A DNA stretch of 64,000 nt from an uncultured Candidatus Saccharibacteria bacterium (GTDB taxonomy: Bacteria > Patescibacteriota > Minisyncoccia > Phycocordibacterales > UBA918): positions 7,013 to 71,012 of the forward strand of contig CAYNQD010000001.1 in the NCBI GenBank assembly GCA_964399295.1, read 5' to 3'. Both the position numbers and the translations under genes were made by a program. This document shows positions 13,253 through 40,436 of the stretch, one piece after another. Within the stretch, counting starts at the first letter, position 1. Each line of letters starts with the position of its first letter. Under the pieces are notes generated by a model, which did not search any database, had not been told where the DNA came from, and saw only the letters and a program-made list of their open reading frames with translations.

Positions 13253-13325
13253 GCCACCTTAGCTCAGTTGGTAGAGCAACGGTTTTGTAAACCGTGGGTC
13301 GTCAGTTCAAGTCTGACAGGTGGCT
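13253..13325 (+). tRNA. tRNA-Thr (anticodon UGU)
   Basis: Cloverleaf folded by hand. Acceptor gccacct/aggtggc, D-arm gctc-agttggta-gagc, anticodon stem acggt/accgt with loop tttgtaa (anticodon TGT), T-arm gtcag-ttcaagt-ctgac, discriminator t. CCA is not encoded. Confidence 0.85.
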
Positions 13326-35914: not shown

Positions 35915-36556
35915 ATGCATGAATGGATAATTGGAGTGGATGAGGTTGGCCGCGGGCCTTTGGCGGGGCCGGTGGGTGTGGGGGTCGTCTTGGTGTCGGC
36001 GGATTTTGACTGGGATTTGCTTAAGGGGGTGGGTGATAGCAAGCGGGTGAAGCCGGAAAATCGCGAAGCGATTTTCCGGCTTACCAAAGCTCTAAAGAAA
36101 AAACACCAGCTTGATTACGCGGTGGTCATGGTCAAAGCCGCGGTGATTGATGATATAGGAATTGTGCCAGCAATTAGCCAGGCGACGGCTAAAGCTTTGA
36201 AAAAAGTCACCGCCGCTTTATCTGCAATTGATTTTGAGAAGATGATAGTTAGGCTGGATGGGGGATTAAAAGCCCCGACAATTTATAAAAATCAGGAGAC
36301 AATTATAAAAGGAGATGATAAAGAGTTGATTATCGGGCTAGCTTCAATCGTGGCAAAAGTGACGAGGGATGAATACATGAAAAAAATATCATCGAAAGCA
36401 GAATTTTTGCCTTATGACTTTGGGAAGCATAAAGGTTATGGTACCAAAAAACACCGCCAAGCAATTGCCAAGCATGGCTTGTCGTCAGAACATAGGCAAA
36501 GTTTTTGTAGAAATATCAGTTTTGACCACATTCAGTTGCAATCTCCGCCAAAATAG
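35915..36556 (+). CDS. rnhB: Ribonuclease HII
   Basis: N-terminal IIGVDEVGRGPLAGPV (the DEVGRG catalytic motif). Confidence 0.88.
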   Translation: MHEWIIGVDEVGRGPLAGPVGVGVVLVSADFDWDLLKGVGDSKRVKPENREAIFRLTKALKKKHQLDYAVVMVKAAVIDDIGIVPAISQATAKALKKVTAALSAIDFEKMIVRLDGGLKAPTIYKNQETIIKGDDKELIIGLASIVAKVTRDEYMKKISSKAEFLPYDFGKHKGYGTKKHRQAIAKHGLSSEHRQSFCRNISFDHIQLQSPPK

Positions 36557-36615: not shown

Positions 36616-36920
36616 AGTTCATTCGAATTTTATACGAGATTGGCAGAGTTAGTTTATTGAGATGTGATTTTGTCCATTGGATAATTTCTTTCCTCCAGTT
36701 TTATGAAAACGGCGACCGACTGTGAGCGGACTGTGCATAAAATAACGAAACCATTCTTGTTTTCACCAGCTGTTGCTCGGCTTTGCGACAAAAAACTTGT
36801 CTACTGATAAAGGAATCAGTAAGACTTTGTCAAAAATACCTTGACGCACGCTGGTGAGCGAAAAGCGCTAACGACATCTTAATTAACTTTGAGATTTGGT
36901 CGTTAGCGCTTTTATTATTT
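36616..36920 (+). ncRNA. Candidate ~300-nt non-coding transcript or long regulatory leader ending in a strong intrinsic terminator/attenuator just upstream of rpmF
   Basis: Bounded by the promoter above and a 15-bp perfect stem (aaaagcgctaacgac / gtcgttagcgctttt, 36861-36913, extendable to about 19 bp with a bulge) followed by a UUUUAUUAUUU tract. Only a 35-codon ORF lies inside. No RNase P, tmRNA or SRP motifs were found by eye. Confidence 0.35.
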
Positions 36921-36964
36921 CAGGCGGTTGCTTTTTTACAAGGATTTGCTATAGTTTCGCCATT

Positions 36965-37237
36965 ATGGTAATTCGAATGCGACACACGCGGTCACATACC
37001 GCCAACCGCCGCTCTCATCACGGGCTGGAAGCTCCTGATTTGGCAGTGTGTAAAAATTGTGGGGCTTTACACCGGCCGCATCACATGTGTCTGGACTGTG
37101 GTTTTTACAAAGGGCGAGTAGTGATTGATTTAGCAGCTAAAAAGAAAGACAGAGAAGAGCGTTTGCGGGTTAAGCGTGAAGCTAGGAAAGGTGATAATAC
37201 TGAGGAATCAGCTCCCGCCAAGCCAGCTACAGTTTAA
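36965..37237 (+). CDS. rpmF: 50S ribosomal protein L32 with Lys/Arg/Glu-rich C-terminal extension
   Basis: MVIRMRHTRSHTANRRSHHGLEAPDLAVCKNCGALHRPHHMCLDCGFYKGRVV matches the L32 core (RRSH...HH...CG.Y.GR.V). The ORF-track start at 36896 adds an improbable hydrophobic leader. Confidence 0.8.
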   Translation: MVIRMRHTRSHTANRRSHHGLEAPDLAVCKNCGALHRPHHMCLDCGFYKGRVVIDLAAKKKDREERLRVKREARKGDNTEESAPAKPATV

Positions 37238-37243
37238 AGAATA

Positions 37244-37271
37244 GGCCCCATTTGGGGTTTATTTTTTTGTG
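37244..37271 (+). terminator. Weak Rho-independent terminator after rpmF
   Basis: Stem cccca / tgggg followed by TTTATTTTTTT. Confidence 0.45.
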
Positions 37272-37339: not shown

Positions 37340-38242
37340 ATGGCAAATCGGCATCTTTCACGCAGTATCGTTCTTCAATCACTCTTTGAGTGGGATTTAA
37401 ATGTTATAGATAAAAAAGAAGTGGTTGGAGTTTTGGACAGAAATATTGAAGAATTTGCCCCCAACAAAACCGATAGGCCATTTATGGAAAAGCTTCTAAG
37501 CGGAGTTTTGAGCAAGCAGCCGGAATTGGATTTGGTAATCTCCAAAGCCGCTCCTGAATGGCCGATAGAACGAATCTCACCGGTTGATAGAAATATTCTC
37601 CGCTTAGGTCTTTATGAGCTTTTGTTTTCTGAACGCTCAGAAGTGCCGGCTAAAGTTGCTATCAATGAAGCTATTGAACTGGCCAAGCAGTTTGGCGGTG
37701 AAAATAGCAGCCGGTTCGTCAATGGTGTGCTCGGAGCTGTCTATAAAGAGATGGGAGAACCGGGGAAAGAGGAGGTGAGCAAAAACCGTAGAAAAGACAT
37801 TCCTTTTGACCAAATGCCGATTGAGCGTTTGTCTGGCGCGGTGGTGTATGCGGAAGAAGATGGGGAGATATATCTGGCTTTGGTGCACGATATTTTTGGT
37901 CACTGGACACTTTCCAAAAGCAAAGTCAGAGAGGAGGAGACAGTTGAGCAGGGAGCGGCTAGGGCTTTGCTGGAGGAAATCGGTCTGCCGGTAGAAATTG
38001 AGGCTGAATTGGGTAATAATGAATACATTGCCTCACAACCCGATCGCGGCAAGGTTCGCAAACAAGCGCATTATTTTTTGGCAAAAGCTCCCTATCAAGA
38101 GGTGCAATTACTAAAGAAAGGCGGGCTGGATGACGCCAAGTGGTTCCGTGTGGCGGACATTTTAGAATTGAATTTTTACGAGGATATTTTGCCAATCGTA
38201 ACCAAGGCCATCACCATGCTGGTTGGCAGACGCGGTAAATAA
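37340..38242 (+). CDS. nusB: NusB antitermination factor fused to a C-terminal Nudix hydrolase domain
   Basis: The N-terminal ~140 aa are a NusB fold (MANRHLSRSIVLQSLFEWDL..., RNILRLGLYELLF). The C-terminal ~150 aa carry a Nudix box GHWTLSKSKVREEETVEQGAARALLEEIGL (Gx5Ex7R(A/E)uxEExGu). An extended -10 TGgTATACT lies upstream. Confidence 0.65.
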   Translation: MANRHLSRSIVLQSLFEWDLNVIDKKEVVGVLDRNIEEFAPNKTDRPFMEKLLSGVLSKQPELDLVISKAAPEWPIERISPVDRNILRLGLYELLFSERSEVPAKVAINEAIELAKQFGGENSSRFVNGVLGAVYKEMGEPGKEEVSKNRRKDIPFDQMPIERLSGAVVYAEEDGEIYLALVHDIFGHWTLSKSKVREEETVEQGAARALLEEIGLPVEIEAELGNNEYIASQPDRGKVRKQAHYFLAKAPYQEVQLLKKGGLDDAKWFRVADILELNFYEDILPIVTKAITMLVGRRGK

Positions 38243-38279: not shown

Positions 38280-38990
38280 ATGGAAGAGCGAAATATAGAT
38301 ACTGATTTGCAAGCACTACAAAAAATTCTGGGCGTTGATTTTAAAGACGTGGCTTTGTTGCTGTCTGCCGTCACTCATCGTTCATATTTGAATGAACATC
38401 GGGAAGCTACTTGGGATCACAATGAGCGGTTGGAGTTTTTGGGGGACGCGGTTTTGGAATTGGCGGTGACGGATTTTCTTTTTCGCAAATACCCGGAAAA
38501 GCCGGAAGGTGAATTGACGGCGGTGCGCGCGGCCATTGTAAATACCAATTCTTTGTCTTCCGCCTCTGAGCAGCTGGATGTTAACCAATATTTGTTGATG
38601 TCTAAGGGTGAGGCTAAGGATGAAGGTAGAGCTAGACAATATATTTTGGCTAATGTTTTTGAGGCTTGTATTGGGGCGATATATTTGGATCAGGGTTATG
38701 AAAAAGCCTGTGAATTTATCACCGGTCGGCTACTGGGCAACACCGATGAAATCGTACAGAAGCGTTTGTGGCAGGATCCTAAGAGTCGTTTTCAGGAATT
38801 GGCACAAGAGAAAGCTTCTGTCACACCTACCTACGAAACCATTTCTCAGGACGGCCCAGATCATGATCGGGTTTTTACCGTTGGGGTTTTCTTGAGGCAT
38901 GAGAAAGTGGCGGAAGGTAAGGGGAGGTCAAAACAAGAAGCTGAGCAGCAGGCGGCTTTGCAGGCGGCTGTCGCTAAAGGTTGGGTTTAG
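38280..38990 (+). CDS. rnc: Ribonuclease III
   Basis: RNase III signature ERLEFLGDAVLELAVTDFLF. C-terminal dsRBD (KSRFQELAQEK...GKGRSKQEAEQQAA). Confidence 0.9.
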   Translation: MEERNIDTDLQALQKILGVDFKDVALLLSAVTHRSYLNEHREATWDHNERLEFLGDAVLELAVTDFLFRKYPEKPEGELTAVRAAIVNTNSLSSASEQLDVNQYLLMSKGEAKDEGRARQYILANVFEACIGAIYLDQGYEKACEFITGRLLGNTDEIVQKRLWQDPKSRFQELAQEKASVTPTYETISQDGPDHDRVFTVGVFLRHEKVAEGKGRSKQEAEQQAALQAAVAKGWV

Positions 38991-39058
38991 GGTTAGCGGG
39001 AAAAGTAAAAAGGGGCGCCGGCTTTGCCGGCGCCCCTTTTTACTTTTCCCGCTAACCA
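38991..39058. terminator. Exceptionally long perfect hairpin (32-bp stem, 3-nt loop) immediately after the rnc stop
   Basis: ggttagcgggaaaagtaaaaaggggcgccggc-ttt-gccggcgcccctttttacttttcccgctaacc. Probable intrinsic terminator/insulator. It forms a perfect dsRNA of RNase III substrate length. Confidence 0.55.
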
Positions 39059-39104
39059 CATCACCACCAATATAGACAATAGCCAGCATGCTATACTTTT
39101 ACGT

Positions 39105-39875
39105 ATGAATATTAGCTGGCGAAAGCTTTCAAATCAGCACGGCTTTACTTTAATCGAGATCTTGGTCGTGTTGTCTATCATTGGTATTTTGGTATCGGCC
39201 GTGATGTTTAACATGTCCGACAGTAGCAAGAAAGCTCGTGATTCCGAGCGCCAAGCCGACCTACGCAACATCCAAAGCGCGCTGGAGTTGTATAAAAACA
39301 AATATGGACGGTATCCAGAAGCGTGTACTCCTGCCAATTCCACAAACGCTCAAGGCTGGTCTGGACAGCCTGGAACTAATTTTGCCTGTCAGAGTCAGGT
39401 AAATAATTATATTCTAGGTAATGAGGTAGAGGGAAGATTGTTTTCTGAGTTTATACCGGTATTACCGACTGATCCTAAACTTAATTCCAGCACGCCCGGC
39501 ACTTCCGGTTACGTATATCGTACAAATGCGAATGGTACTGTATATAAATTGATGGCAATGCGAACGGTTGAGAGTGAGAAAGTTAATTATGGTCATCCAT
39601 TTAAAAGTTGCGATATAGTACCTGTTAACTCTAACGGTACAGGTTATCCAGACGGCGCAGGCCCAAATGATATTACCGTCGCCGGATGGTGTTCATACGT
39701 ACAAGTTTCAGGAATGAGTAATGGACCACAGCCGCACTGTAAGATGCAGGGTGATAATGGTAATGACGGAAGGTTTAGTAATTCCTATGGTCTTTGGGGA
39801 GGCTTTGAGCCTAAAAATAGTCTTGGTAATGATGCCTTGAGGTTTAGAGAAACTACCACCGTTATATGCAGGTAA
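39105..39875 (+). CDS. Type IV pilin-like protein (class III signal peptide, prepilin peptidase site G|FTLIE)
   Basis: MNISWRKLSNQHG|FTLIEILVVLSIIGIL: Gly-1, Phe+1, Glu+5 and the hydrophobic alpha1-N helix. The ORF-track start at 39024 lies inside the hairpin and is rejected. Confidence 0.65.
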   Translation: MNISWRKLSNQHGFTLIEILVVLSIIGILVSAVMFNMSDSSKKARDSERQADLRNIQSALELYKNKYGRYPEACTPANSTNAQGWSGQPGTNFACQSQVNNYILGNEVEGRLFSEFIPVLPTDPKLNSSTPGTSGYVYRTNANGTVYKLMAMRTVESEKVNYGHPFKSCDIVPVNSNGTGYPDGAGPNDITVAGWCSYVQVSGMSNGPQPHCKMQGDNGNDGRFSNSYGLWGGFEPKNSLGNDALRFRETTTVICR

Positions 39876-39887
39876 ATAAAATAGGTT

Positions 39888-40436
39888 ATGAATACAATTT
39901 TTAAAAAAGGATTTACTTTAATTGAACTTTTGGTCACGATAGCGATTATTTCCATACTGTCGGCCATCTTGTTTGTTAGTTTTGATGATGCTCGCAAGCA
40001 GGCGCGCGATAAGGCCAGAGTATCAGAATTAAAAGAAATGCAGTTGGCCTTGGAGCTATATAAGGCGCAAAATGGTCATTATCCAGAACAAGGTTGTGGC
40101 GTTGTTGGCGAATTTGCTGGTGTTGGCCCTGGTGGTACTGGCCTGGCTTCGTGTACTACTACTCCCTATATAACTGGCCTGACACCTGATTTTATAGCAA
40201 CCTTACCAATAGACAAAAAGTTTCAGAGTGAAGCGGGTAGAGGGTTTTATTATCGCACTAATGCTGATAGAAGTAGCTACAAATTGATGATTCACGAAGC
40301 GGTCGAATCTTTAACTGTCACCAGCTATAACGATAAATTCGCACGTTGTCCAAGATCATACTCCACCAGCCACTGCGGATCCACTCCGCCGCCCGATACT
40401 TACGCGGTTTTCAGTCGTGGAGCGGAGGATTGGTAA
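39888..40436 (+). CDS. Type IV pilin-like protein (second paralog)
   Basis: MNTIFKKG|FTLIELLVTIAIISIL, a canonical prepilin N-terminus. 182 aa. Confidence 0.7.
   Translation: MNTIFKKGFTLIELLVTIAIISILSAILFVSFDDARKQARDKARVSELKEMQLALELYKAQNGHYPEQGCGVVGEFAGVGPGGTGLASCTTTPYITGLTPDFIATLPIDKKFQSEAGRGFYYRTNADRSSYKLMIHEAVESLTVTSYNDKFARCPRSYSTSHCGSTPPPDTYAVFSRGAEDW

Follow-up and report, generated by a model that had tools for sequence, protein, structure and literature searches.

NusB with a Nudix-fold domain attached

A stretch of 64,000 nucleotides (hereafter, the window) from contig CAYNQD010000001.1 of an uncultured Candidatus Saccharibacteria bacterium carries a nusB::nudix fusion gene, whose product (the window protein) joins the transcription antitermination factor NusB to a C-terminal Nudix-fold domain. 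Throughout the Paceibacteria (Parcubacteria) branch of the ultra-small Patescibacteria, this architecture is fixed. The added domain derives from hydrolases of Ap4A and related ApnA compounds, and its pattern of conservation favours, with moderate confidence, a module that binds a nucleotide and hydrolyzes it very slowly or not at all. In most bacteria, NusB is usually a single-domain protein of about 140 amino acids (aa). Our literature searches on NusB with Nudix, fusion, Patescibacteria, candidate phyla radiation (CPR) or Parcubacteria found no description of this architecture, and a comprehensive review of the Nudix clan from 2017 (PMC5389931) leaves NusB unmentioned. The fusions are labelled simply 'NusB' in public databases, though they are abundant there. 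For annotation, spotting the Nudix domain in them could wrongly imply a working hydrolase.

A single reading frame encodes NusB and a Nudix domain

The open reading frame (ORF) is open throughout, encodes 300 aa and ends at a TAA stop at 38240–38242 (Table 1). Residues 7–136 match the Pfam NusB family (PF01029; E 1.9e-36, 125.8 bits against a cut-off of 23.1), and residues 168–282 match the NUDIX family (PF00293; E 1.8e-12, 47.9 bits against a cut-off of 21.1). TIGR01951, the NCBIfam equivalog model for nusB, gives 130 bits, above its cut-off of 88.35. These matches bear out the preliminary description of the locus, a reading made from the letters and ORFs, in which an N-terminal NusB was said to run into a Nudix domain without a stop.

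The N-terminal half of the window protein is a bona fide NusB. It matches NusB chains in the PDB with E-values down to 2.4e-20 (the solved chains are 139–156 aa long), and its first 138 residues are 39% identical to E. coli NusB. Foldseek superimposes this half on the NusB of the NusB–S10 complex 3imq with a template-modelling (TM) score of 0.85 and 39% identity, and on 3d3b and 3d3c with a TM score of 0.81; identity across the NusB structures is 38–39%. The NusB core 'AINEAIELAK.FG...S..FVNGVL' is kept. Phe126, which lies in the conserved C-terminal NusB motif and aligns with Phe122 of E. coli, is a residue with a functional role in NusB and is invariant in 42 fusions, an indirect indication that the domain may bind S10 (NusE) and boxA RNA. 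The other multidomain setting of a NusB-like domain that came up, the N-terminus of RsmB methyltransferases, appeared among weak matches in the NCBIfam scan.

Another residue of this domain, Asn122 (37703–37705), aligns with Asp118 of E. coli NusB ('GENSSRF' against 'AEDSHKF') and is invariant among 11 aligned close relatives. The structure 3imq, titled 'NusB101-S10(delta loop) complex', reads 'AENSHKF' at this site; we take nusB101 to be D118N, a mutant with higher boxA affinity.

An AlphaFold2 (AF2) model based on a 42-sequence alignment has a mean predicted local distance difference test (pLDDT) score of 90.5 and a predicted TM score (pTM) of only 0.61. Seven helices form the NusB domain (pLDDT about 85–98), and an alpha/beta domain begins at residue 161, with strands within 161–184 and the box helix at 202–214. 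Residues 141–150 of the intervening linker have pLDDT values below 50 and are predicted to be disordered; in the family the linker measures 6 to 37 residues (median 22). Because the pTM is 0.61 despite the confident domains, and the linker is disordered, NusB and Nudix are predicted to be two confident domains without a fixed mutual orientation.

The fusion recurs across the Patescibacteria

The preliminary description had proposed surveying the lineage for this fusion. A scan of one genome per GTDB species with conserved Nudix-domain peptides from 7 close sequences confirmed at least 592 loci in species-representative Patescibacteria/Paceibacteria genomes. The best 80 of these loci, each from a different species genome, were inspected: NusB and Nudix share one frame in 79, and the remaining locus (L061) is cut by the contig end within the Nudix domain. 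Both Pfam domains are present in each of the best 120 homologues (83–100% identity), proteins of about 300 aa that bear the labels Parcubacteria, Kaiserbacteria, Nomurabacteria or Paceibacterota and were drawn from NCBI, JGI, ENA and Logan assemblies; an identical protein (P0001) is present on 6 contigs of up to 594 kb. A profile of the most divergent fusions (28–53% identity) returned 120 proteins, every one with both domains, and added Moranbacteria, Giovannonibacteria and Paceibacter to the named range. PF01029 and PF00293 occur together in all 240 homologues among the matches listed, and fusions down to about 29% identity were retrieved when the Nudix half alone served as the query of an exhaustive HMMER search. 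In a whole class of Patescibacteria, NusB has permanently acquired a second, strongly conserved domain. The sole organism label for the divergent fusions, an 'Alphaproteobacteria bacterium' metagenome-assembled genome (MAG), is probably a binning error.

An alternative explanation is that adjacent nusB and Nudix genes were merged by sequencing or assembly error, and one contig, L086, does have the two called separately, as a 'NusB' of 133 aa and a 'NUDIX' of 141 aa (P0137). The split there consists of a single in-frame TAA (L086:940–942) at the codon of the conserved Tyr135; the reading frame of the fusion otherwise continues intact, and the 'start' called for the second protein is a Leu codon, TTG. 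P0137 was therefore rejected as a split form. The TAA reflects a sequencing error or else a nonsense mutation that a fusion acquired recently, and the case shows that 'stand-alone' matches in databases may mislead. Since the fusion recurs across independent genomes in a conserved gene order (79 of the best 80 loci, and all 240 clusters among the matches listed), the merging of separate genes is refuted, and we assign it a negligible probability. The fusion is real, far beyond chance or assembly error.

No genuine split pair of nusB and nudix genes was found among the 'stand-alone' Nudix matches that were checked, and most of the short matches of this kind are not separate proteins. P0121, P0130 and P0134 start inside the NusB C-terminus or the linker and were rejected as fragments, and the contigs of P0129, P0184 and P0227 are too short for a verdict. 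Met159 is unsupported as an internal translation start, this residue being Met in 95 and Leu in 65 of 233 fusions. A truly stand-alone relative of the fused domain is P0145 (L081:4001–4453; 150 aa), which has a canonical RE..EE box and does not lie beside nusB. Its 20-kb contig contains weak or faint integrase, DNA methylase and Phage_rep_O-like neighbours; carriage of this Nudix type by a mobile element or phage is suggested.

The Nudix domain resembles ApnA hydrolases

The preliminary description had proposed an RppH-type activity, the removal of pyrophosphate from RNA 5' ends. For the assignment to a subfamily, a profile of 22 fused Nudix domains was compared with all PDB sequences. The best match is the Aquifex Ap4A hydrolase 3i7u (7.5e-20), followed by CT771 (4ilq; 3.7e-14), the Ap6A hydrolase Ndx1 (1vc8; 4.2e-13), human NUDT2 (3u53; 1.9e-10) and the C. 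elegans Ap4A hydrolase (1kt9; 3.7e-10); MutT1 comes after this Ap4A group, and then Dcp2 at about 3.5e-9. Foldseek, which reports a probability of 1.00 between the Nudix half and many Nudix structures, ranks 3i7u first (TM 0.86), Thermus Ndx1 second (TM 0.85) and the Nudix domain of NrtR third, with Rv2985/MutT1, CT771 and the C. elegans Ap4A hydrolase behind them; the TM scores to the Ap4A/ApnA-hydrolase neighbours are 0.86, 0.85 and 0.74. The NCBIfam RppH model NF001936 yields 15.8–17.8 bits against a cut-off of 118, and no chain named RNA pyrophosphohydrolase occurs among the best 60 PDB profile matches. The structure 3ees, which we take to be Bdellovibrio RppH and which is the only PDB match recognised as RppH, matches in the box region only (3e-5). 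Because the profile and fold searches rank Ap4A/Ap6A hydrolases first, the fused Nudix domain descends from NUDT2/Aquifex-type Ap4A/ApnA hydrolases and not from RppH.

A signature of the ApnA hydrolases is an X-loop Tyr downstream of the box that contacts the substrate, described as 'residue 87 in human Ap4A hydrolase' (Dunn et al. motif, PMC5389931). Tyr229 of the window protein aligns with the Tyr of 'ELNYVA' in NUDT2, which we provisionally equate with residue 87 by way of a presumed +5 offset in the numbering of the nuclear magnetic resonance (NMR) structure. This position is Tyr in 229 of the 233 fusions and Phe in the other 4. The domain is acidic, with an isoelectric point (pI) of 4.8 (family median 5.1), values that describe the domain as a whole.

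The nucleotide pocket is conserved and the metal ligands vary

The canonical Nudix box is GX5EX7REUXEEXGU (PMC5389931), and the window protein has S194-x5-E200-x7-R208-A209-L-L-E212-E213-I-G215-L216, short of the complete motif. The Gx5E start given for the box in the preliminary description is incorrect, the first position being Ser194. E. coli RppH holds three Mg ions through E53, E57, Q37 and E120, with E56 as the putative base (PMC7144940). In our alignment, in which the numbering of the E. coli RppH sequence agrees with that report, E53 corresponds to Ala209, E56 to Glu212, E57 to Glu213, Q37 to Lys193 and E120 to Gly262, next to Gly261. By chain numbering, the same RE Glu is Glu58 of NUDT2, the residue mutated in PDB 4ijx (E58A), and from its alignment with Ala209 the window protein naturally carries a substitution at the E58A site. 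Of the catalytic glutamates of ApnA hydrolases, only E213 (with E212) is kept, and A209 and G261/G262 replace the others. The preliminary description had pointed to the catalytic glutamates as a check, and the motif, incomplete on alignment, tells against the proposed RppH-type activity on that description's own terms.

Residue counts in the 233 fusions extend this picture to the family. The RE position (209) is Glu in 114 (49%), Lys in 50, Ala in 30 and Val in 20, and Ile also occurs. The first Glu of the 'EE' pair (E212) is found in 187 (80%) and the second (E213) in 227 (97%). At position 262, 229 have Gly, and at 261 only 6 have Glu; no fusion (0/233) combines the loop Glu with the box glutamates, four in all. 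Residues of the pocket are nearly invariant: Trp189 in 233/233, Lys193 in 232, Tyr229 in 229, Trp268 in 232 and Tyr280 in 230. Lys193 is the Lys of the PKG motif, which reads S-K-S in the window protein, and Tyr280 is presumably the second stacking aromatic seen in the NUDT2 and C. elegans structures.

Changes were counted on a quick neighbour-joining tree of 115 fusions, the sampling of which follows database content. Position 209 underwent about 50 changes, with at least 27 switches between Glu and another residue, and freely varying surface positions underwent 50 and 64; K193, Y229 and E213 changed 1, 3 and 5 times. Even among loci 77–87% identical to the window protein, residue 209 is A, E, S or K. 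The RE position appears to evolve like a neutral site. Mean pairwise identity is 49% for the Nudix domain and 56% for NusB. Synonymous sites are saturated, and the proportion of nonsynonymous differences (pN) is 0.09–0.20; only the comparison with L024 allowed an estimate of dS for the two halves, and each has a dN/dS of about 0.04. Both halves are under strong purifying selection, and the Nudix domain is not decaying. By these alignments, the loop Glu has been lost family-wide, and the RE Glu and the first box Gly also in the window genome. Selection appears to maintain the fold and the nucleotide/phosphate pocket, and not the full set of metal-binding glutamates.

Possible function of the fused Nudix domain

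Because the pocket residues are conserved while the metal-binding glutamates are unconstrained, we favour, as the somewhat probable reading, a Nudix domain that, attached to NusB, would bind a nucleotide and hydrolyze it very slowly or not at all. NusB is joined through a flexible linker (about 22 residues) to a domain derived from ApnA hydrolases, in which Trp189, K193, Tyr229, Tyr280 and Glu213 preserve the signature of the nucleotide pocket. This domain would ride on NusB in the NusB–S10–boxA complex of rRNA antitermination and processing and would act as a ligand sensor or adaptor, not as an RNA 5'-pyrophosphohydrolase. From the sequences we infer that catalysis is weakened or lost, that ligand binding persists and that antitermination may be affected. 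The ApnA-hydrolase ancestry and the retained Tyr together suggest that the ligand may be an adenine dinucleoside polyphosphate or nucleotide. If the domain senses a nucleotide or alarmone, it would feed into rRNA antitermination and processing in a way not recognised before, and would be an example of genome-reduced symbionts consolidating regulation into fusion proteins.

A more specific version of this proposal, to which we give a fairly low probability, is that NusB in the Paceibacteria would be a ligand-gated antitermination factor, whose pseudo-Nudix domain binds an Ap4A-type alarmone or the nucleoside triphosphate (NTP) pool and thereby tunes the assembly or activity of NusB–S10–boxA. 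In a variant, the domain would grip the nascent rRNA leader at a 5' end that carries ppp or an Np4 cap and so aid loop formation. Such gating, if true, would make rRNA transcription and RNase III processing respond directly to the nucleotide or stress state of organisms with very small genomes.

Several observations weigh against a binding module devoid of catalysis. A fully canonical Nudix box is found in 92 of the 233 fusions (39%); the enzyme may be active in some lineages, as it may have been in the ancestral fusion. E200, R208, E212 and E213 are still there in the window protein itself, and residual or altered-metal hydrolysis is possible. Mutants of the equivalent Glu residues in the C. 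elegans Ap4A hydrolase reportedly show kcat values lowered about 1000-fold and 30-fold, not abolished.

These same points bear on the view that the domain is a working small-molecule Nudix hydrolase for Ap4A/ApnA or NTP clean-up, able to do without the RE and loop glutamates; its attachment to NusB would then serve mainly co-expression, or the local removal of dinucleoside polyphosphates near RNA polymerase. Its nearest relatives are active Ap4A/Ap6A hydrolases, E213 and E212 are largely conserved, the complete box persists in a substantial share of the fusions, and purifying selection on the domain is strong. In addition, NudD/GDPMH enzymes with RL-x2-AE boxes support a different catalysis (PMC5389931). 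Against these stand the repeated switching of the RE Glu, replaced by Lys, Ala, Val or Ile, the family-wide absence of the loop Glu, and the identity of the RE Glu as both the residue mutated in the NUDT2 E58A crystal and a Mg ligand in RppH; we regard a working hydrolase of this kind as unlikely. Somewhat less credible still is a pure protein–protein or structural adaptor, a SuhB-like accessory subunit built into the Paceibacterial antitermination complex, that would bind no small molecule. The flexible tether fits such a role, and the SuhB enzyme fold operates in the rrn complex of E. coli, where its inositol monophosphatase activity is not known to be required (PMC6614797). The strongest conservation, however, lies in the ApnA nucleotide/phosphate pocket (the PKG Lys, the X-loop Tyr and the last box Glu), which a protein-binding surface would not need.

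The activity put forward in the preliminary description would make the domain an active RppH-type RNA 5'-pyrophosphohydrolase or decapping enzyme on NusB, coupling elongation to the 5'-end-dependent processing of nascent rRNA or mRNA. It accords with the attachment of a Nudix fold to a transcription factor that binds RNA, with the proximity of rnc, with the retention of E212 and E213, and with the presence of Dcp2 among the profile matches. Work cited in the Nudix review (PMC5389931) also first described E. coli RppH (YgdP) as a hydrolase of Ap5A, so ApnA-type Nudix enzymes can act on RNA 5' ends. The fused domain nevertheless falls far below the cut-off of the RppH equivalog model, the best PDB matches include no named RNA pyrophosphohydrolase and 3ees aligns over the box only, Ala and Gly occupy the positions equivalent to E53 and E120, the RE position is neutral across the family, and the domain is acidic where RppH has a positively charged cleft (PMC7144940). 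An RppH-type activity is accordingly very unlikely, and this part of the preliminary description was not sustained.

Relation to known systems

The NusB half is an equivalog-level match with the fold and identity of ordinary NusB; unlike the latter, the window protein continues past a flexible linker into a conserved C-terminal Nudix domain of ~140 aa. The closest counterparts of that domain, NUDT2, Aquifex aq_158, Thermus Ndx1 and Chlamydia CT771, are the best matches by profile and fold and share with it the 'W-T-x-x-K' motif, the X-loop Tyr and the Tyr/Trp framework. The window protein has S-K-S for P-K-G, RA for RE and Gly-Gly for the loop Glu. The NUDT2-type hydrolases are stand-alone proteins, whereas the domain in the window is fused to NusB and its hydrolytic activity is doubtful.

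Non-catalytic Nudix modules are known from other proteins. In TRPM2 NUDT9H, a substituted box abolishes the hydrolysis of ADP-ribose (ADPR) and binding persists (PMC4974056); NUDT21/CFIm25, with an RLx2EI box, and the NrtR regulators are non-hydrolytic as well (PMC5389931). TRPM2 NUDT9H, NUDT21/CFIm25 and NrtR/AraR resemble the window protein in placing a Nudix fold within a multidomain or complex-forming protein and in having substitutions of the RE/EE glutamates, and the NrtR domain is the third-best Foldseek match noted above. TRPM2 NUDT9H, NUDT21/CFIm25 and NrtR have kept ligand or RNA binding and lost hydrolysis, and the NusB fusion may have done likewise. They differ from it in belonging to other Nudix subfamilies (ADP-ribose type, CFIm25) with other partner domains, and the fusions differ from them in that the canonical box is kept in the 39% mentioned. 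The fusion would add a bacterial, transcription-linked case to this short list.

RppH shares the Nudix fold and the theme of RNA metabolism, and it also hydrolyzes ApnA-type substrates. The window domain is set apart from it by the failed model, by the missing equivalents of two Mg ligands, E53 and E120, and by its acidic pI over the whole domain, against the basic RNA cleft of RppH. SuhB works in the E. coli rrn antitermination complex, in which it serves rRNA transcription and maturation independently of catalysis (PMC6614797). Like the fused domain, SuhB represents a small-molecule-enzyme fold recruited to a Nus-factor complex, a likeness of analogy only; it has an inositol monophosphatase fold and is a separate subunit that binds NusA-AR2, unfused to NusB.

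Gene neighbourhood

The fusion gene lies directly upstream of rnc, as the preliminary description had stated, with a gap of 37 nt in which a consensus scan located no terminator-like site; rnc is probably co-transcribed with it. In the best 80 of the at least 592 loci, the conserved order is (dnaE–) rnhB, rpmF, nusB::nudix, rnc, (pilin) and smc. rnc directly follows nusB::nudix in 79 of the 80, the exception being the truncated L061, and rpmF keeps its upstream position wherever the locus reaches that far. The terminator-like hairpin after rpmF suggests that nusB::nudix–rnc may form a transcription unit apart from rpmF. Nus-factor complexes (NusB–S10–boxA) coordinate rRNA transcription, folding and RNase III processing (PMC6614797), so the conserved pairing with rnc is meaningful and the RNA-processing theme of the preliminary description is a sensible one.

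Table 1. Features of the nusB::nudix locus in the window
Feature	Position	Strand	Basis and remarks
nusB::nudix fusion gene	37340..38242	+	single ORF, 300 aa plus stop; PF01029 and PF00293 above gathering scores
NusB domain, aa 1-138, all-helical	37340..37753	+	PF01029, TIGR01951, PDB matches, Foldseek, AF2
Lys/Glu-rich flexible linker, aa 139-160, GEPGKEEVSKNRRKDIPFDQMP	37754..37819	+	AF2 pLDDT; variable length in family
Nudix-fold domain, aa 161-300, Ap4A/ApnA-hydrolase-like	37820..38239	+	PF00293, profile against PDB, Foldseek
Degenerate Nudix box, aa 194-216, S-KVREE-E-TVEQGAA-R-A-L-L-E-E-I-G-L	37919..37987	+	sequence, alignment to Ap4A hydrolases
Codon GCT = Ala209, replaces metal-binding 'RE' Glu (RppH E53, NUDT2 E58)	37964..37966	+	alignment
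Tyr229, ApnA-hydrolase 'X-loop' signature Tyr	38024..38026	+	aligned with NUDT2 'ELNYVA' Tyr
Gly261-Gly262, replaces loop Glu (RppH E120 / NUDT2 'SHEHQ' Glu)	38120..38125	+	alignment
rnc (RNase III)	38280..38990	+	Pfam Ribonuclease_3 and dsrm
rpmF (ribosomal protein L32)	36977..37237	+	Pfam Ribosomal_L32p, E 1e-19
Terminator-like hairpin plus T-run, 3' of rpmF	37236..37267	+	consensus scan only
rnhB	35915..36556		flank of fusion gene
Two type IV pilin-like genes, between rnc and smc	39024-40436		N_methyl and weak T2SSG Pfam matches

Beyond the pilin-like genes, the locus is also flanked by smc. The pilin-like genes are present in nearly all of the closest loci (25 of L001–L026, plus L028) and are rare between rnc and smc in distant loci; they look like a clade-specific insertion into the rnc–smc linkage. 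At the gathering threshold, Rfam detected only a tRNA at 13253–13325 (+) in the 64-kb window, and no rRNA, known leader or riboswitch. The mechanical ORF of rpmF starts at a TTG 27 codons before the Met at 36977, where the L32 match begins; this upstream extension (36896–36976; MVVSAFIISGGCFF...) is probably untranslated.

Variant and atypical proteins

Second 'nusB' matches in L018 and L046 were insignificant, with domain E-values of 20–700, and were discarded. In three proteins (P0143, P0152 and P0162), the N-terminal half resembles an ordinary canonical Nudix domain ('GQWVAPGGRIEFGE...REIKEELG'), and the C-terminal half is nearly identical to the fusion Nudix ('LGENEYVASDP..GK.RK.VTYFLAE...GGLDDARWF...LNFYED'); these may be recombinants or assembly chimeras. 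P0215 (577 aa), from a single 10-kb ENA contig, has about 330 unrelated N-terminal residues ahead of a partial NusB-like segment (331–417) and a Nudix domain (419–553). P0223 (291 aa) is a tandem double Nudix protein with two canonical 'HWSFPKGHVE...REhxEETG' domains and is a distant relative of the fused domain.

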